A DNA stretch of 61,861 nucleotides, filler included, from Globobulimina sp. (taxonomy: Eukaryota), in the NCBI GenBank assembly GCA_003354225.1. It is 28 parts of 28 records of this genome, joined end to end, with 100 filler letters (N's around TTAATTAATTAA, not from the genome) between each part and the next. Parts side by side here need not be neighbours in the genome. Positions count along the whole stretch, not along the records: positions 2,216 to 4,330 come from PIVH01008875.1; 27 more parts are not named here. One strand, given 5' to 3'. The notes under the pieces were generated by a model, which saw only the letters and a program-made list of their open reading frames with translations, was not told the DNA's origin and ran no database searches. Below are positions 1 to 52,077 of the stretch, in pieces. Positions within the stretch are counted from its first letter, which is position 1. Each line of letters starts with the position of its first letter. The translations under genes and the position numbers were made by a program.

Positions 1-4
1 AATA

Positions 5-736
5 ATGTCACAGGCAACAGATAAAATTATATTAAATATACATTATAGTGATAACCAAAAATGCCGCTTGAAAGTGTACAATACATTGTCTGTTGTTCAA
101 ATAATTCAAAATATACGAAATATTGTTGGATGCAATGATATTATTTGTTTAGATGCTGATCGAGATATAATTGCATTATCTCCAACGTTACCAACTGGTA
201 TTGACATATATGTTGTATCAAAGGATAAACATCAACCAAATAAACCAAAATCTGAGCAGAAAGATGATATTAAACAACAATCCGTGCAAGTCCGCAAGCC
301 ATTAATGTATGGATATGCTGATCGCGCAGGTTCAGGGCATCAACAATATGCATTTGATGGTTCAGGATGTGGTGAGCCTGTTTTATTCACAAATGTTACA
401 AATAATGGTTGTTGTAATATTGGTGATATGTTAAATTCGCAAAATGGAAGATTCACTGCGCAAATAAATGGTATTTATACCTTTACAGTGGGTGTGTTGT
501 TAAGTGGCTGTGCTGATCAGTTATGGTTTAATTATAATGGCAAAAGGCAACAAACGTTTTCATCGCCAATTCATCATAATAGTCAGGCATTTAGTGGTTC
601 ATTAACTATTCAGATTAATAAAGGCGACTATGTTGATTTTAGAATGTATAAAAATAGCTTCAAAGGAACAACAATGGAAATTTACGAGAATTTCCATCAT
701 ACGTTTGTTAGGTGGACATTAATTGATGCTTTATAA
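5..736 (+). CDS. C1q-like domain protein with an N-terminal ubiquitin-like/unknown domain
   Basis: 243-aa ORF; C-terminal half has C1q-type motifs (PVLFTNV, GRFTAQINGIYTF, SGSLTIQINKGDYV). Confidence 0.6.
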   Translation: MSQATDKIILNIHYSDNQKCRLKVYNTLSVVQIIQNIRNIVGCNDIICLDADRDIIALSPTLPTGIDIYVVSKDKHQPNKPKSEQKDDIKQQSVQVRKPLMYGYADRAGSGHQQYAFDGSGCGEPVLFTNVTNNGCCNIGDMLNSQNGRFTAQINGIYTFTVGVLLSGCADQLWFNYNGKRQQTFSSPIHHNSQAFSGSLTIQINKGDYVDFRMYKNSFKGTTMEIYENFHHTFVRWTLIDAL

Positions 737-871
737 TACAATTAAATAACATTTACCCTTTGTTATAGCCTGTAGGTTTCCAAAAGTTTCCATGATACTT
801 CACAAAAAAGTTTTCTTTAGTCAGTATCTTTATGTTCATTTTCAAATTGACTTTGTAACTGAAACAAGAAT

Positions 872-2215: not shown

Positions 2216-2227
2216 AAAAATAAAAAA

Positions 2228-2291
2228 TGTGATGATAGGGATTTGAACCCAAATCTTCTTTAATTAGATGCTTTTCTTAAGCTATCATCAC
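2228..2291 (-). ncRNA. 64-nt tRNA-like element with stub anticodon arm ('mini' copy 1)
   Basis: GTGATGA TA GCTT AAGAA AAGC A TCT AATTAA AGA AGAT TTGGG TTCAAAT CCCTA TCATCAC A, followed by a T-run; paralog at 32582-32645. Confidence 0.75.
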
Positions 2292-2842
2292 AATAAATTG
2301 GATAATGTGGCCAACATAATCTCTCTTTTAAATATGTTTTTGCTGCGGGAGGCACGCCACCGATCTCTCATTTAATTTATGTGCCATCAAACTTATGTTT
2401 TCTACATCAGTTTGTTTTTATTTTTATTTTGAGGTTTGAAATGGATTACGTTCTTTTTTACTGTTTACAGTGGGCGCCGATGATTTGCGTTTGTTTGTGT
2501 CGTGTTCCTTTCTTAGATTGCAATAAAATGCATGTTGCAGTAATATAGCAATCTGATAATAAACATAAATCTAAAAATTATTGTCTTGAAACATTTGATA
2601 CACATCGAATATGAATATAAATATTAATGTCAATATGATAATAAATGATAAATATTAGTGGCAGCTGGCTCATATATATATTCATGATCATAATCCAGGA
2701 CAACGAATGTTATTAATATAGGAATTATGATTAAAATTTAAAAATATCAACTAAAAATAACAATCTCCCGCTCCCTCTCACTCTCTCACACTATCTCCAT
2801 CTCTCTAACATTGCAAAGTTTGTGTAACACAATAAACAGAAT

Positions 2843-10731: not shown

Positions 10732-11073
10732 TTATATATTGAAGTAAAGAAAAATATATAAGACATTTGTTTTGAATGACATGTGTGTTTTTTTTGCTTT
10801 AATAAAAATTAAATTTTTATGTCAGTCCACAGATTTTTTCGAGCTCCAGTGAGAAAATCATTTCTAAGTCAGAAAAATAATCAGAAAAGTAAGAAAATCC
10901 TTTTTCAAACCAGAATTTGAAAACGCTGCAGCCTTGTATCAATACCAATCACTTCGCAGTTTTGTTAAGCACNNNNNNNNNNNNNNNNNNNNNNNNNNNN
11001 NNNNNNNNNNNNNNNNTTAATTAATTAANNNNNNNNNNNNNNNNNNNNNNNNNNNNNNNNNNNNNNNNNNNNA

Positions 11074-13186
11074 ATATCAGCCGGAGTATCAAGAGATGTG
11101 TTTGGAACATTTCCATTAAAAGGAAGACCATTAAATGTACGTGGTGTAGATGCCATCAAAATAATGAAAAATCAAGAAATATCAAACCTTAAAAAAATAT
11201 TAGGTTTAAAACAAGGATATAAATATACATCTTTATCATCATCAGAGGGACTTCGATATACTGGCTTAATCATACTTACAGATCAAGATTTTTTCGGATT
11301 CTCCATTAAAAATCTCATATTGAATATATTTCATGTATTCTGGCCAGAATTATTAAAACTTGGCTTCATTCATTTTGTTAATACACCAGTATTAAAAGCA
11401 ATAAGCAAAAAAGAAACGCATACATTTTATTCGATGCAAGCTTTTGAAAAATGGTCTGTTGTAAATGATGTAAAGAAATATCACATTAAGTTCTTTAAGG
11501 GATTGGGCGGACATGACAGCAAATCGGCAAAAGAAGCATTATCAAACATTGAAGATAAATTAATTAAATATACATTCACAACTGACAAGGATGACAAAGC
11601 TATGAAATTGGCATTTGACAAAAGTTTAGCAGATGACAGAAAACAATGGTTAATGAATTATGATCGCAATAATGTATTTGACCCAGTTGTCAGAAATCTT
11701 TCACTTGATGACAGTATTAATAAAGAATTAATTCATTTCTCAAAATATGATACCGCAATCGCAATACCAAGTGCTTTAGACGGTCTCAAAAATTCACAGA
11801 GAAAAATATTATATACTGGATTAAATTATGTAAAAGGCGAAACCAAGATCGCACGTCTCGCGGCAAAGATAAGTGAAGTCTCAGATTATCACCACGGTGA
11901 GAAATCATTAGAGAGTGCTCTAGTCGGTATGGCGCAAAACTTTGTTGCCAGTAATAATTGCAACTTGTTTGAACCATTAGGACAATTCGGAACACGTATT
12001 ATGGGTGGAAAAGATTTTGCGAGTTCTCGATATATATTCACGGAATTAAGTAAAATTACGAAAAAAATATTTAGAGATTCAGACTCTGTTCTTTTAGAAA
12101 GAAATATGTCAGATGATAATGACCCAATTGAACCTCGGTTTTATGCACCATGTATTCCAGTAATATTAATTAATGGAGCTCGTGGTATTGGAACTGGTTT
12201 CTCAACAAGTATATTACCGCATAGTGTTGAAGATGTTGTTAATGCAGTTAAAGATAAATTAAATAATAAAAAAGCAAAAAAATTACAACCACATTATCGC
12301 GGATTTAGAGGAGAAATTAACCCGGCTGAATCAAAAAAATATATCGCATCTGGCGCATATACAATTGATGAACCAAAAAACACAATAATTGTAACTGAAT
12401 TACCACCAGGTGTATGGACTGAGACTTATAAACAATATATTGAAACCCTAATTATTGATAGAAGCGCAGATAAAAAATTACAAAAGAAACAATTTATTAA
12501 GAACTACTTAAATTATTCATCGGAAAAAACCGTACGATTTGAAATTGAAGTTGAAAAGAAAATCTTTAAAGAATTAATGAAAAAGAAATCTACAATTACA
12601 AAATTGCTAAAATTAGAAACATCATTATCCGAAACAAACATGTATCTGTTTTATAAAGATGACAAAATCAGAAAATTTAAATCGGCAAATGAAATATTAG
12701 ATTATCATTATGCGATTAGATTACATTATTATGAATTACGAAAACAAAATATGATTAAAACATTATCAGCAAAAGTCACCGAATTAAAAAATAAATCTCG
12801 ATATATCAAGAGCGTAAATTCAGAAGAAATTAAACTACTTAGACAAACCGAAGAAAAATTAATTGCACAATTAGAAAAAGCCAAATTTGTAAAAATTAGT
12901 AACAATAAAGGAGTATTATCATATGACTATTTATTAGATATGAGACAACGTGCATTAACAATGAAATATGCAAATAAACTTGAAAGCGATTATAAAGAAT
13001 TAAATAAACAATTAGATGCATTAAAACGAAAAGATATTAAGGATATGTGGAGAGAAGATTTAGATGAAATCTTAATAGAAAATGAAAAATATAATGATAA
13101 ATTAACACATGATATGGAAGAAGAATTAAAGGAACAAGGAAAAGGTAAAAAAACAAAGAAAGCAGCTAAAAAAATTAGAAAAGTAC
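11074..13186 (+). CDS. TOP2: type IIA DNA topoisomerase (TOPRIM to C-gate), 5'-partial, giant-virus-like
   Basis: FPLKG, LRY, TDQD, KGLG, DGLKNSQRK, YHHGE, catalytic SSRYIFT, GIGTGFST; intronless and very AT-rich. Confidence 0.93.
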
Positions 13187-24206: not shown

Positions 24207-24256
24207 GGGCTGCCTCAGGCTTTGAACCTGAATCTTCTGGATATATCTATCCAGTG
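24207..24256 (-). ncRNA. 3' portion of a tRNA-like element, cut by the contig end
   Basis: CTGGAT AGATAT ATCCAG AAGAT TCAGG TTCAAAG CCTGA GGCAGCC: perfect 5-bp T stem and a non-canonical anticodon hairpin. Confidence 0.6.
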
Positions 24257-31330: not shown

Positions 31331-31583
31331 GACTCAGTAGCTCAATGATAGAGCGTGTGTCTGCAGTTTCGGCTGTTCCACCCAACAAAAACTCAACATT
31401 GATTTTTTCAAACAATCCATTATGATTATTGAAAAAATTGGTTTGTATTTGCAGTAATAATACGACATTATATTGCAATGCAAATTAATTTCTAAACTCA
31501 TTGTTGCTCAACATAGAGATGCTCCAAATTAAATGTTATGGTTATAACTCACATGAATGTAGGTTTGAGTCCTACCTGAGTCA
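31331..31583 (+). ncRNA. tRNA-like element with a 183-nt structured insert after CTGCAG ('maxi' copy 1)
   Basis: acceptor GACTCAG/CTGAGTC-A, D stem GCTC/GAGC, T arm GTAGG TTTGAGT CCTAC; paralog at 45370-45571. Confidence 0.8.
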
Positions 31584-32435
31584 GCATTGTAAAATTCTTC
31601 TTTTGCACATACCATCCTCCAACCCGTTTAAATCGCAAATTAAAAACGCCATTTTAGAGTAGAGCACAGCTGCATGCTGTCCTCTTTTTGTGCATAATCA
31701 CCAGTAGTATCATCTGTATCAATCTGAATCAATCTGACCGTCGTCGGACCAAGATTTAATTTGCGTGAACGATTAGGGCTTTCCGATAAGTACTGAAAAT
31801 TTCTGCTGTTCAAAAACGTTTTCAGTTCTTTTCCCTGTTTTCGTCAAAAGTTATGGTTTAAAATAAAAGAATTATACAAAGACATTGCTATTCGATCCTG
31901 ATTTGAATACAATTATTTAGAAAAGGAATTGAGTGGCAATCCACCACTCACCACTGCAATATTGGAAATAAGAGATTTGAGTGGCAATCAACAGCCACAA
32001 TCTCACAAAAACGATTTTTTAATATGATATTATTATTAAAATAGAATTTGATGGTTATTATACCATCACAAAATACGCAAACATATTATGTTTATTGTGT
32101 TACTCATGTAATTTAATGGAATTTTATGGTTATTTTGCCATCACAGACAACACAATGAAATACATTAATTGTATATTTATTATTTAATTGTATAATTTTG
32201 GATGAACATATAATAGCATCGACAACAGAGTTAGTTTTGTTAATTTATTGATGGGCAATGATGTCGATATTGTAAAGAGAGTTGGAAATGAATTGGAAGA
32301 TATGATGCGATTATACGACAAATATGGCAATAATTTGAATAAAAATATGTTAGATTTGAATATATCGAGTTAATATATATTTTTTTCACACAATATAATA
32401 TAGGCAGTATAGAGAGTGGCAAGATAATTGCAAAC

Positions 32436-32570
32436 AAAATAGGAAATATAAGCGTAAAAAAATAGGAAATACAGTATTGGTAATCTGATTTCCAACAAAA
32501 ATAGGAAATATAAGGTCAAAAAATTCTACAATACATTGTATTGCTGATTTTATATTGCCTATTTTTGCTG
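32436..32570. repeat. three direct and one inverted near-copies of AAAATAGGAAATATAA
   Basis: visible directly next to the mini tRNA-like element. Confidence 0.55.
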
Positions 32571-32581
32571 TTTTTTTCTAA

Positions 32582-32645
32582 TGTGATGATTGGGATTTTA
32601 ACCCAAATATTCTTCAATAAGACGCTCTCTTTGAGCTATCATCAC
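32582..32645 (-). ncRNA. 64-nt tRNA-like element with stub anticodon arm ('mini' copy 2)
   Basis: GTGATGA TA GCTC AAAGA GAGC G TCTT ATTG AAGA ATAT TTGGG TTAAAAT CCCAA TCATCAC A. Confidence 0.75.
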
Positions 32646-32704
32646 AAGAAGATATTTGTAGGTGGCAGCTGTCACGGCGCTATGGCCACGCTTGATTTGT
32701 CCAC

Positions 32705-33109
32705 GGCGCTACGTACCGTAATAAATGCCATCGGTACGTATTGGAGGCGCCGTACCATCATTAATAGCATCGATTGGCGGCGCCGTACCATCATAAATCC
32801 CATCGGTACGCATTGGAGATGCCGTACCGTAATAAATACCATCGGCACGCATTGGCGGCGCCGTACCATCATTAATAGCATCGATTGGTGGCGCCGTACC
32901 ATCATAAATAATATCGGTACGCATTGGTGGCGCCGTACCATCATAAATAATATCGGTACGCATTGGTGGCGGCGTACCATCATAAATCATATCGGTACGC
33001 ATTGGTGGCGCCGTACCATCATAAATAATATCGGCACGCATTGAGGGCGCCGTACCATCATAAATCATATCGGTACGCTTTGGCGGCGCCGTACCATCAT
33101 TAATAGCAT
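32705..33109. repeat. GC-rich tandem array of 39-nt and 33-nt units (about 10.5 copies, runs off the contig)
   Basis: consensus GGCGCCGTACCATCATAAATAATATCGGTACGCATTGGT; minus frame reads (DGTAPPMRTDIIY)n. Confidence 0.92.
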
Positions 33110-45369: not shown

Positions 45370-45571
45370 TGACTCAGATAGGATTCAAACCTATATCTAT
45401 GTGGACTATACCAACAACATTTGGTTGTGTATTATATTTAAGGTGTTGGCAAACAAATTGCTTTTAAACTTGGTTTAGTTTAATTTTATCATATTGAGAA
45501 AAGGTTGGTTGTTGGGGGGGGACACAGCCGAAGCTGCAGACACACGCTCTATCAAATTGAGCTACTGAGTC
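45370..45571 (-). ncRNA. tRNA-like element with a 130-nt structured insert after CTGCAG ('maxi' copy 2)
   Basis: same acceptor and D stems as 31331; T arm ATAGG TTTGAAT CCTAT; long T-run about 12 nt downstream. Confidence 0.8.
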
Positions 45572-46190
45572 TTGTATATTGCTTGTGCTTAACATAATTA
45601 TTTGCGCTATATATGTTGCTATCGAATGGCACACAAATATTTATGGTATGCACAGTCGATCTGCTACATTCTCACTGTTAATATATTAAATTAATTATAA
45701 AATATGTAATATATATTTAATATTTGCAATTGATTCATTATAAAATAAAAATGTATTATAAATTAAATTAAAACGGATTGAGAAACGAATTTGATTGTTA
45801 TTGTTTACTATGAATACTAGTAGTACTAAATTGAGAGGCAGCAATATATGATATCAATATCATTGATATGAATGCGTACGTTGTGTAACTGTAACAACAA
45901 TAAAATTATATGTACATCATGAATTAATTCCATGTGGCTCCAGTTGAATGACGTCATTTTATTCTATGCTATTCATGTGAGCGATGAATATAATTAAGTT
46001 GAATGAGTCATGCCTTGCAAATTGGTTTGTGATTGTTTCTGATGTTTGAAGTGTGACTTAAGTGAAAACCTAGAAACATTACATTTTACTGCATTGGATG
46101 ACATTTAATAATTGTTTAATATTTGATTGCTTTATTGGTGGTGTTGAAAAACACCTGGTAAAAAATAAAAAAAGTAATTAATTTATTGAT

Positions 46191-46482: not shown

Positions 46483-48183
46483 CAAATTCAAATAAATCTC
46501 GAAAAGGGAATTTTTCAAAGTTATGTACAACTTACCAAACTTTAAATCTCCAGGAAAAGATGGAGTAAATGGTTTTGTAACGAAAATGGCTTTGCCCATA
46601 ATTGGTGACATGCTATATAAAATTTTCAATCTGTCACTAAAAACTGGTATTTTCCCAGATGTTTGGAAGGAATCTGTTATTATCCCAATCCACAAGTCAG
46701 GATCTCTTGGTGAACCTGCAAACCACCGTCCTATCTCATTGCTCCCTCTATCTGGAAAAGCATTAGAAAGATTTGCCTATGAACAATTATACAACCATGT
46801 CATAAATTATGTGAATCCCCAGCAGTTTGGATTTTTACGAGGACGTTCAACTGAAACTGCAATTCTTAAAATTACAGATGCAATTTACTCAGCCATTCAA
46901 AGTAAACATCTTACATCATTGGTCCTTTTGGATATGTCTAGGGCGTTTGATTGCGTCAATCATGAAATTCTAATTGCCAAACTGGAGCAGTATGGAATTG
47001 CTGGCTCTGAACTCCTTTGGTTTAAGTCATACCTCTCAAATCGAAAACAAACTGTCAGAATGGGAACTCAGACATCACCACTTCTCCATGTATCGACGGG
47101 TGTACCCCAAGGGTCAGTTTTGGGCCCTTTGTTGTTCCTTATCTACATAAATGATTTGCCTAGAATAGTCAAGAATTGTGAATGTACTATGTTTGCCGAT
47201 GACATCCAACTTCGATTTGCTTTTCGCCCTGATAATGTACAAAATGCTTATGATCAAATTCAGTCAGACCTAAATGATATTGCTGTTTGGTGCATGAACA
47301 ATTGCCTAAAAATTAATTCTACCAAATCACAGGTGGTAACAGTTGGGACAAGCCAAAATCGGCGACTGTTAAACAATGTCCCAGATCTGACACTTTCAAA
47401 TGAAAGATTAATATGTGTACCTGAAGCCAAAAACCTTGGTGTGATATTTGACGAAAATATGAACTTTTTTGCGCATCTAAAATCTGTGTCAAAACGATGC
47501 AAAAGTGACTTATTTGCAATAAGCCGTGTAAAGGACTGTATACCTCGAAAAATTCTTATTCAAACAATTGAAACAACTGTCTTTTCGAAACTATATTATG
47601 CTGCCTCTGTAATCCATGCAGCTCCTGTGTCATATGTGGATCAAACCATGCTTCGAGTGGTTAATTATGCAGCAAAAATGGTTTACGGCCTTAGAAAATA
47701 TGATCATGCCACTGAATGTAGAAACAAACTTCATTGGAAAGATGCCACAACTGAACTCAAATATCGAACCCAACTGATGGCCTATAAATTATTTATCGAT
47801 CATAATCCAGTCGGACAATTGACTTTCAGCAATTGCAGGCGTTCAAGCCGATTGAACCGAGTACCGAAATTTGAGATACCATCCTTCACAACTGGTGCAG
47901 CCAAAAGAGCATTCAGTTACAGAGCTCCATTATTGTTAAATGAACTTTGTGAAATTTTAGATGTAAACTGTTCCTCGCCCATATGCTATTCCAAATTTAA
48001 ATCACCATTGAAAAGGTTTTATGACAGTTAATTTTATTCTAGTCTTATAATTTTGGTATGTAACTGTATATGTATATGTAATGTGTCACTTCCCTTGTGT
48101 CATGATTCATTATTCTCATAATTAACCATGTGACTAGTTAACGCTATATCACTTGGGAAGTATAAAACTTGAAACTTAAACTT
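46483..48183 (+). mobile_element. non-LTR retrotransposon (CR1/L2 group) 3' half: RT ORF 46523-48031, 3' UTR and AAACTT(G) tail
   Basis: HRPISLL, QFGF, LDMSRAFD, GVPQGSVLGPLLFLIYINDL, FADD, KNLGV; in-frame TAA at 46493-46495 suggests an inactive copy. Confidence 0.93.
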
Positions 48184-48364
48184 GTGGCCATTCTGGTCGT
48201 GATCAAAGTGTGGTTATTCTGGTCATGATCATAGTGTGGTCATTCTGGTCATGATCATAGTGTGGTCATTCTGGTCATGATCAAAATGTGGTCATTATTG
48301 TCATGATCAAAGTGTGGTCATTCTGGTCATGATCATAGTGCGGTCATTCTGGTCATGATCATAG
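48183..48364. repeat. 26-nt minisatellite, 7 copies
   Basis: TGTGGTCATTCTGGTCATGATCATAG. Confidence 0.95.
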
Positions 48365-48374
48365 TGTACATATG

Positions 48375-48490
48375 TTATAACATAACATAAACATAAACAT
48401 AACATAACATAACATAACATAACATAACATAACATATGTTATAATATAACATAACATAAACATAAACATAACATAACATATGTTATAATA
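48375..48490. repeat. (CATAA)n microsatellite
   Basis: visible directly. Confidence 0.9.
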
Positions 48491-51222: not shown

Positions 51223-52077
51223 ATGAGCCAACAACTACTTACATTAATACAAAATCGAAAAAAAAATGCAATTAAAGAAGCGCATGCATGGAAAACTGGA
51301 GTTGAAGACACATCTATATCATGTTGGCCACAAGTAGCAATTAGCCATTTTATTCAAGCAAATGGATATATTGAAAATATTGATAGATTACAAAAGGCGG
51401 AAGATGCAATTATTATAAAACTAAATCGGGCGAGATTATATGAATCAGATTCAGATTCAGATTCAGAGAATAATAAACAGCCAAAGAAACAAAGACCACC
51501 AAATAAATCAACACCACCAAATAAACAGTCAAAGAAACCAACACTACCAAATAAACAATCAAAGAAACCAAGATCACCAAATAAACCAAGATCTCAACGC
51601 ATTAAATTAATTTTAAATACAAATAAAAATAAAAATAATAAAACTACACTTAAACAAAGAGCAATTAAATGGAAATTAAATAAATCAAATGGAGTTATAG
51701 TTCATAAAAAAAAAAGACTTACAAAACGTGAATTTAAATTAAAATTGTTTGAAAGTAAATTTAAAGTAAAAGATACCAATCAATTATATTGGTATGATGA
51801 TCACAAAAAAGTGTTTGCTGAATTAAAACAATTATTATATACACCAAAATGTGAACCAATTATTGATAAATTCCCAACAAACCGTTTACGCGATATTCTT
51901 TCTTTTGTACGATATCCTCATTGTAAGTATGGTGATCCTGTAAGTATGCGATGTAAGTTAAAGGGATTTGTTAAAGAAGTAAGGGAAACCCTTGGAATTG
52001 AAGCGGTGAGACATGATATGAAACCATTTTCATTTAGACAAATCTATAAAAACATTGATTATTTACGTGAAACTTGA
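51223..52077 (+). CDS. basic hypothetical protein with PNKQSKKP repeats
   Basis: 284-aa intronless AT-rich ORF. Confidence 0.55.
   Translation: MSQQLLTLIQNRKKNAIKEAHAWKTGVEDTSISCWPQVAISHFIQANGYIENIDRLQKAEDAIIIKLNRARLYESDSDSDSENNKQPKKQRPPNKSTPPNKQSKKPTLPNKQSKKPRSPNKPRSQRIKLILNTNKNKNNKTTLKQRAIKWKLNKSNGVIVHKKKRLTKREFKLKLFESKFKVKDTNQLYWYDDHKKVFAELKQLLYTPKCEPIIDKFPTNRLRDILSFVRYPHCKYGDPVSMRCKLKGFVKEVRETLGIEAVRHDMKPFSFRQIYKNIDYLRET

Follow-up and report, generated by a model that had tools for sequence, protein, structure and literature searches.

A multi-copy family of 64-nt tRNA-shaped, non-decoding elements in contigs of a foraminifer-like rhizarian

Introduction

Sequences derived from tRNA genes include tail-less tRNA retropseudogenes, which are a known class, and tRNA-derived SINEs, most of whose heads no longer fold as tRNAs. 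RNAs that keep the tRNA shape and do not decode provide a second comparison. MascRNA and menRNA, which originate from MALAT1 and MEN-beta, are described in one account as tRNA-shaped non-decoders of about 60 nt with a smaller D stem-loop and no anticodon loop; as characterized there, their acceptor and T stem-loop regions are tRNA-like, the stem equivalent to the anticodon stem is longer, the loop is compact, and linker residues are missing (PMC11693755). In Arabidopsis, the tRNA-like RNA of GUT15 is presented as having an anticodon region unable to form a 5-bp stem with a 7-nt loop and as residing in an intron of a Pol II gene, with no autonomous Pol III transcription in that report's account of it (PMC6152437). 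Our full-text literature search found no paper linking foraminifera with tRNA-like RNAs and, among the matches listed, none mentions foraminifera alongside tRNA-derived SINEs.

Here, we describe a family of tRNA-shaped elements, denoted mini, two copies of which lie in the window, i.e., the entire stretch of DNA that was analyzed (61,861 nt). With tRNA-derived SINEs and tail-less tRNA retropseudogenes, the family shares a tRNA origin, a putative internal Pol III promoter of the B-box type, multiple copies dispersed among unrelated flanks and the existence of subfamilies with diagnostic positions. Unlike these, the mini element measures just 64 nt and lacks both a body and a tail of the LINE-like, A-rich or simple-repeat kind; no target-site duplication was seen, most copies end in a T-run, and the cloverleaf is nearly perfect. 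The likeness to cytosolic tRNA genes extends to the 7-bp acceptor, the U8/A9-like linker, the 4-bp D stem, the 5-bp T stem and the TTCAAAT loop, as well as to the discriminator, the lack of an encoded CCA, the T-run terminator and the occurrence of identical bodies with unrelated flanks; the differences are a D loop of 5 nt without GG, an arm of 12 rather than 17 nt and the fact that ARAGORN calls none of the elements.

An earlier note on this DNA had likened the elements to mascRNA, and this comparison stands as far as shape is concerned, given that the acceptor and T stem-loop regions are tRNA-like in both, although the mini element has a stem of 3–4 bp and retains a U8/A9-like linker. It is not supported for biogenesis: mascRNA forms one module, located where a Pol II lncRNA ends (3'), whereas the mini element occurs in many copies, in four unrelated upstream contexts and with a T-run of its own. 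In contrast to the GUT15 RNA, the mini elements have many copies, and their B-box-like motif and T-run suggest autonomous Pol III units.

Methods

The window consists of 28 contigs of 2,111–2,115 nt, separated by spacers of 100 bases (Ns around a short linker). Four additional copies (L001–L004) were retrieved from metagenome contigs, all in one WGS set, by a scan in which no more than portions of the D arm, the stub and the T arm were prescribed, and a fifth (L005) was found with a second pattern among genome contigs. A covariance model (R1) was built from six of the copies of the first type (type 1). Depth was taken from contigs of four sequencing runs (X1–X4) with a likeness of at least 80% and summed over these contigs, and such a sum is not a copy number.

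Results

A 64-nt cloverleaf with a short hairpin in place of the anticodon arm

The two window copies (Table 1) had been described as sharing one length and layout, and their alignments to the Rfam tRNA model RF00005 bear this out: both are 64 nt long, both cover model positions 1–71 from end to end, and they are identical at 54 of 64 positions. Their 7-bp acceptor stem (GTGATGA/TCATCAC) encloses a TA linker, a D arm with a 4-bp stem and a 5-nt loop, a single junction base, a 12-nt hairpin, a variable region of four bases and a T arm with a 5-bp stem and a 7-nt loop; the discriminator is an A. The hairpin, hereafter the stub, stands where a 17-nt anticodon arm belongs and, in both RF00005 alignments, comprises 3 paired positions and 6 nt. 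Copy 1 has the D stem GCTT/AAGC, the stub TCT-AATTAA-AGA and one mismatch in the T stem (alignment column 55); copy 2 has the D stem GCTC/GAGC and the stub TCTT-ATTG-AAGA, and its T loop differs from all others by a C-to-A change. Minimum-free-energy folding of copy 2 recovered the cloverleaf with its short hairpin (z −4.57), and the z-score for copy 1 was −3.84; for neither copy did any of 200 shuffles fold as well.

Searched against the whole window, RF00005 gave E-values of 1.5e-06 for copy 1 and 5.4e-07 for copy 2, the latter being missed by the whole-window gathering search because of a filter effect. The six copies scanned with this model scored 45.7–49.9 bits, against a gathering score of 29; L005, scored with R1 and not with Rfam, reached 87.9 bits. 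ARAGORN reported no tRNA in the window or in L001–L004, and across the 69,983 bases searched with ARAGORN and the Rfam tRNA model no ordinary tRNA gene was found.

Canonical tRNAs have a D loop of 7–11 nt with the consensus G18 G19. In all seven full copies of the mini element, the D loop has 5 nt with a single G, and GG is absent. The stub likewise measures 12 nt in 7/7 copies (3–4 bp and 4–6 nt) and a 7-nt loop occurs in none of them, so that the short arm is, as had been proposed from two copies, a trait of the family. Because this shape, without a 7-nt anticodon loop, excludes decoding, the mini element is non-decoding by shape.

Three other identities were considered and rejected. The acceptor strand GTGATGA resembles the C box of a snoRNA, but a D box is absent and the Rfam snoRNA matches are sub-threshold. 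A plus-strand match to the Plastid-ycf2 5'UTR family scored 28–32 bits against a gathering score of 65.7 and is an antisense echo of the tRNA shape. A mitochondrial insertion in the nucleus (NUMT) or an organellar tRNA is at odds with the presence of nuclear-type genes in the flanks (myosin head, protein kinase), and tRNA genes are reported, in the accounts cited, to be missing from retarian mitogenomes (PMC10127745, PMC13746701).

Table 1. Coordinates of the mini elements, their flanking features and related tRNA-like elements (window positions, except where a contig is named)
Feature	Position	Strand	Remarks
Mini copy 1, subfamily B	2228..2291	-	Rfam tRNA 45.7 bits; model R1 86.2 bits; fold
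Mini copy 2, subfamily A	32582..32645	-	Rfam tRNA 47.3 bits; model R1 96 bits; fold
T-run TTTTTTATTTTT	2216..2227	-	directly after copy 1 discriminator; Pol III terminator-like; contig ends here
8-nt leader AATTTATT	2292..2299	-	just upstream of copy 1 body
GCCAC	2307..2311	-	at -20..-16 of copy 1
GCCAC	32662-32666	-	at -21..-17 of copy 2
Shared upstream flank, ~100 nt	32646..32743	-	common to subfamily A: L004; shorter in L001 and L003
Downstream flank	32550..32581	-	shared with L003 (BLAST 111 nt at 87.4%)
39-nt tandem repeat, 10.5 copies	32712..33109	.	upstream of copy 2; degenerate version upstream of the L001 copy
Type 2 mini, 3' part	24208..24256	-	cut by contig end; R1 T-arm match 24215-24235
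Type 2 mini in L004	1061-1127	-	R1 36.9 bits; Rfam tRNA 37.7 bits
tRNA-Cys(GCA)-like maxi element	45370-45571	-	both copies interrupted behind anticodon-loop position 37 by an insertion of ~130-180 nt
tRNA-Cys(GCA)-like maxi element, second copy	31338-31585	+	missed by Rfam searches

Seven full copies in two subfamilies

The full type-1 copies number seven, two in the window and five on other contigs, and all are 64 nt long. L005 lies on a 939-nt contig filed under a Gammaproteobacteria MAG; the same contig also carries a eukaryote-type protein-kinase ORF (22–489), and it is probably a mis-binned contig of a eukaryotic host. Viral contigs yielded no match to the mini family pattern.

Two subfamilies can be distinguished. 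Subfamily A (copy 2 and L001–L004) has the D stem GCTC/GAGC and the stub TCTT-ATTN-AAGA, and subfamily B (copy 1 and L005) combines the D stem GCTT/AAGC with the stub TCTA-NTTA-AAGA and the leader AATTTATT. The compensatory D-stem change first noticed between the window copies is real in the alignment, with C-G in five copies and U-A in two, and a GCTT-type D stem was also seen in another contig of run X1 (divergence end at 32626). The accompanying statement in the earlier note that the other differences lie mostly in loops is upheld weakly: of the 10 differences between the window copies, 6 are unpaired and 2 form the compensatory pair, but 2 break pairs of copy 1. In the six-copy alignment, a single pair is changed on both sides, a result that 83 of 500 shuffles also reach, and hence the covariation within type 1 is real but thin.

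Over the seven copies, 12 of the 64 columns vary. Variable columns are rarer in the acceptor and T arm (2/31) than elsewhere (10/33; Fisher p 0.023) and rarer at paired (4/40) than at unpaired positions (8/24; p 0.043), but both statistics are biased because the search patterns fixed many positions, stem positions among them. The acceptor stem is identical in L001–L004, where the search pattern left the acceptor free, and the cloverleaf is intact in 6/7 copies. Among the variants listed for the contigs of the four runs, those inside the element fall in the stub only, at 32612 (stem) and 32615 (loop), the latter reading, on the minus strand, G in most of the X1 depth and A in most of the X2 depth; the rows listed contain no insertion or deletion inside the element.

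Borders, terminators and flanks

The location of the window copies on unrelated contigs was confirmed by their flanks, which are not homologous: BLAST similarity between the two covers 71 nt, that is, the body and about 5 nt upstream. Among all copies with unrelated flanks, the similarity extends over 68–79 nt, from 5–8 nt upstream into the T-run, and the homologous unit is composed of a leader of 5–12 nt, the body and the T-run. In run X1, other copies part from the copy 2 contig exactly at 32580 and 32647. The leader motif of copy 1 recurs 4 nt further upstream in L005 and is also present in the X1 consensus of other copies; beyond these 5–12 nt, no upstream motif common to the four flank contexts was found. 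The GCCAC word that had been pointed out about 20 nt upstream of both window copies is indeed there (Table 1), and it occurs in 2/4 independent flank contexts, being absent from L002 and L005; the TATA-like tract is not general across the contexts.

The immediate T-run noted at copy 1 is not peculiar to it. Four or more Ts directly follow the discriminator in 5/7 copies, which represent all four independent flank contexts; the run is T6 or longer in copy 1, L002, L003 and L004, and T4 in L005. In the background, the next 10 nt contain T4 or more in 7.4% and T6 or more in 0.84% of cases. No immediate T-run is present in L001 or in copy 2, where the run is interrupted (TTAGAAAAAAAC) and reduced to TT, the next T6 lying about 60 nt downstream.

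The T arm contains a B-box-like word (GGTTCAAATCC) that agrees with the consensus at 10/11 positions; for the A box, only the first 7 positions (TAGCTCA) match the consensus, and the second half does not. B-box-like motifs number 6 in the window against 1.1 expected, and 4/6 are inside tRNA-like elements; the words at 1740 and 40091 have no cloverleaf around them by eye.

Members of subfamily A are also alike outside the unit. The L004 contig matches the copy 2 contig over 166 nt at 94.6% identity, the L001 contig matches the copy 2 contig over 101 nt at 96%, and the flank at 32646..32743 has raised depth in run X1. The 39-nt repeat that adjoins this flank is open in three frames; one minus-strand frame encodes repeats of 13 residues (PMRTDIIYDGTAP-like), and its stop is 63 nt upstream of copy 2. 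Inspection by eye of the flanks, several of which are only 12–39 nt long because the contigs end there, found no target-site duplication. BLAST comparison of the flanks detected no A-rich, LINE-like or simple-repeat tail, the homology ending in the T-run after the discriminator, and no joint skipping the element (an empty site) occurs among those listed for the contigs of the four runs.

Copy number

In run X1, the summed depth is 20,445 over the element and 5.8 on a 401-nt unique flank contig, a ratio of about 3,500 between sums that are not copy numbers, and it tails off upstream of the element, to 9,622 and then 2,004. The same element bin has a depth of 201.6 in X2, 5.74 in X3 and 25.1 in X4. 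Because the excess is confined to X1 and the sum is not a copy number, the number of copies may be in the tens rather than the thousands. Two stub variants are found on at least 15 and at least 8 distinct contigs, respectively. Furthermore, at most 120 nt separate 6/7 copies from the end of their contig (P = 7e-05); such a position is expected where repeats interrupt a short-read assembly, and is independent support for multi-copy status. We conclude that the mini family is multi-copy, with between tens and thousands of copies.

Host contigs and neighboring genes

The window contigs have a GC content of 27–42%, and the eukaryotic domains identified in their ORFs are CwfJ, RCC1, NOL10, Hyccin, SAC3/GANP, SNF transporter, C1q and RVT_1. 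The NOL10-like ORF is 74–75% identical to two EukProt proteins, and its best organism-named match is from Reticulomyxa filosa (58% identity over 71% of the query). We treat the host of the mini family as a foraminifer-like rhizarian and its contigs as nuclear genome.

One contig stands apart. A 704-aa open frame that occupies it in full (11073–13186, plus strand) encodes the C-terminal two thirds of a topoisomerase II whose best matches, 52–56% identical and about 1,150 aa long, are mostly from Nucleocytoviricota, as are the nearest Atlas clusters, in a search whose length window left out the long eukaryotic Topo II proteins. On sequence similarity, this points to a putative giant-virus contig or insertion among the foraminifer-like contigs. 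Elsewhere in the window, a match to the histone 3' UTR stem-loop at 46116–46160 (minus strand) scored 31.2 bits, slightly below the gathering score of 34. Outside the window, the L001 contig encodes, at 2–781 (plus strand), the C-terminus of a myosin motor domain, followed by a 302-aa ORF.

The RVT_1 ORF (46523–48031, plus strand) is followed, at 48190–48480, by 26-nt tandem repeats and an ACATA-type microsatellite, and is a possible nearby source of reverse transcriptase for retroposition. The idea of a LINE 3' tail was rejected: the 3' region of this contig contains the 26-nt and ACATA-type repeats and no tRNA-like fold, and the weak R1 matches there (9.4 bits, E about 4) are noise. A primer-binding-site role, in which the mini RNA would prime a retroelement, was also discarded, as a 16-nt probe complementary to the CCA-extended 3' end matched the element only, with a chance expectation of 0.61.

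A second mini type and the maxi element

Two further elements follow the same overall plan with stems that differ in sequence from those of type 1, and are denoted type 2 (Table 1). In the L004 copy, located about 900 nt from the type-1 copy on that contig, the D loop has 5 nt, a 5-bp stem closes a loop of 4 nt, the T arm is normal and the acceptor has only 5 bp. The truncated window copy has the stem CTGGA/TCCAG with an 8-nt loop, followed by the T arm TCAGG-TTCAAAG-CCTGA; compared by eye, the two share the same stem, with a loop of 8 nt in one and 4 nt in the other. When type 2 is added to the alignment, 7 pairs change on both sides and none of 500 shuffles reaches 7, but nearly all of this covariation is contributed by a single divergent sequence, and the model that aligned it had been fitted to the same structure. 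Another R1 match, at 51409–51475 (16.7 bits), showed no cloverleaf by eye and was set aside.

The window also contains two copies of a tRNA-Cys(GCA)-like element, denoted maxi, the second of which is separated from mini copy 2 by about 1 kb and has the opposite orientation. Their exons are conserved, with the first T-stem pair changed from A-T to G-C; GG is missing from the D loop, and the T-loop sequence is TTTGAAT or TTTGAGT. Over the 5' part of the maxi element, the summed X1 depth is 1,607, against 5.8 on the unique flank. The mini family had been suggested to be a possible counterpart of the maxi family; comparison of the two found nothing in common beyond a generic D arm.

Discussion

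With moderate confidence, we regard the mini element as a copy of a multi-copy, 64-nt, tRNA-derived family of the Pol III type that is non-decoding and has spread like a SINE, as a repeat made up of the head alone. Its sharp borders, which resemble those of a transcript, the subfamilies and the multi-copy status together argue for a tRNA-derived element multiplied by copying of its primary transcript: the copies with unrelated flanks share exactly the leader, the body and the T-run, which is what a primary Pol III transcript would comprise, and from this we infer retroposition. Given that the element has no body, no tail and no visible target-site duplication, we do not file it as a SINE, and it is the borders by themselves that point to retroposition. 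The two copies with no immediate T-run, the mismatch in the second half of the A box and the confinement of the depth excess to run X1 also count against this reading. The shape, the family, its borders, its T-runs and its multi-copy status are thus observed, and transcription, processing and retroposition are proposed.

Under this repeat reading, the B-box-like T arm and the first half of the A box would recruit TFIIIC and Pol III, and transcription would start a few bases upstream and stop in the T-run directly after the discriminator. The predicted RNA would adopt a cloverleaf fold in which the acceptor stem and the T arm are complete, the D loop has 5 nt and a single G, and the 12-nt hairpin takes the place of the anticodon arm. 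An RNA of such a shape could be a substrate for RNase P, RNase Z and the CCA-adding enzyme but could not decode, and, judged from sequence, the acceptor/T half, the D-loop G and the T-runs would fit a Pol III RNA that enters tRNA end-processing. The family would have multiplied mainly by retroposition of this primary transcript, head-only and tail-less in a SINE-like manner. One subfamily would also have been duplicated at the DNA level, carrying along some 100 nt of its upstream flank and the 39-nt minisatellite; the flank that subfamily A shares next to this minisatellite indicates that such duplication contributes too. No host function would be required.

A serious alternative, although in our estimate probably not the correct one, is that the elements are candidate genes for a selected, non-decoding, trans-acting small RNA, kept in many copies in the manner of tRNA or 5S genes. 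Such an RNA might be made by Pol III and matured by RNase P, RNase Z and CCA addition, and could possibly act as a decoy or partner for tRNA-binding proteins or as a structural RNA. The avoidance of stems by the variable columns and the compensatory D-stem pair between the subfamilies fit selection on the RNA and thus favor this alternative, as do the cloverleaf preserved in nearly every copy, the invariance of the acceptor stem even in the four copies where the search did not fix it, and the restriction of the listed above-threshold variants across contigs to the two stub positions. The one G that each 5-nt D loop retains could form an elbow pair with C56, T-runs are retained in independent contexts, and type 2 reproduces the same design with other stems and, once included, raises the number of two-sided pair changes to a level that no shuffle reached. 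However, young copies of a SINE-like master gene predict the same pattern, and the 7-pair covariation carries the dependence on one divergent sequence and on a structure-fitted model described above. Decay of copies also speaks against selection: copy 1 has its T-stem mismatch, copy 2 has lost both C56 and the T-run, and type 2 combines a 5-bp acceptor with loops of 4 and 8 nt.

The multiplication by transcript copying that we prefer is also to be weighed against passive DNA duplication. In the latter case, a tRNA gene would have lost part of the D loop and the anticodon arm once, and the resulting silent pseudogenes, neither transcribed nor retroposed, would have been carried along by segmental or minisatellite-associated duplication. 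Copy 2, L001, L003 and L004 do share 15–100 nt of upstream flank, and some of them downstream flank as well, and the 39-nt minisatellite adjoins two copies. DNA duplication, however, leaves unexplained the unrelated flanks of copy 1, L002 and L005, with their sharp borders at the leader and the T-run, and the retention of T-runs and cloverleaf also speaks against it; we consider this explanation unlikely.

We rate as very unlikely a module that, like mascRNA or t-elements, would act in cis at transcript ends: the tRNA-like fold would be located in or behind 3' UTRs, and RNase P cleavage would form the 3' end of an upstream Pol II transcript. In L001, the ORF behind the myosin-head ORF stops 148 nt before the mini copy, and in L005 the protein-kinase ORF stops 267 nt before it, in both cases on the same strand; copy 2 follows the stop of the repeat-borne open frame. 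A position at transcript ends agrees with both gene cases, but two downstream, same-strand placements out of two arise by chance one time in four, and the frame beside copy 2 is one of three that the 39-nt repeat leaves open. Upstream of copy 1, the same strand contains no ORF that reaches 50 aa, no upstream motif is conserved across the flank contexts, and the element has a T-run of its own, which a Pol II 3'-end module does not need.

To our knowledge, there is no known case of insertion editing of nuclear tRNAs. A decoding tRNA, whose anticodon loop is completed or remodeled after transcription or has an unusual 6- or 8-nt form, would account for the good tRNA score and perhaps for the variable stub-loop position 32615, but is scarcely credible, given that a 7-nt loop is impossible in every copy, that the loop sequence varies and preserves neither a U33-like nor a purine-37-like pattern, and that one report describes a cluster of ordinary tRNA genes from a foraminifer (PMC3079666).

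If, as the repeat reading holds, the family is a mere repeat, it would be an unusually minimal mobile unit, consisting of a tRNA-shaped head, a leader and a terminator, and would inform how Pol III transcripts re-enter genomes without a LINE-type tail. It would matter for the annotation of foraminiferal genomes, in which the family breaks short-read assemblies. A bolder extension, which we put forward tentatively and regard as rather improbable, is that foraminifera carry hundreds to thousands of Pol III mini-genes of at least two types, whose RNAs would be expressed, matured like tRNAs and maintained by selection, as trans-acting mimics or transcript-end signals. Were the RNAs expressed and selected, the mini family would be the first abundant family of non-decoding tRNA mimics outside the vertebrate mascRNA-type loci and isolated plant cases, and would offer a direct handle on the role of the acceptor/T half of tRNA alone. 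A lineage of giant-celled protists whose RNA biology is almost unexplored would then gain a new class of abundant tRNA mimics or transcript-end signals.
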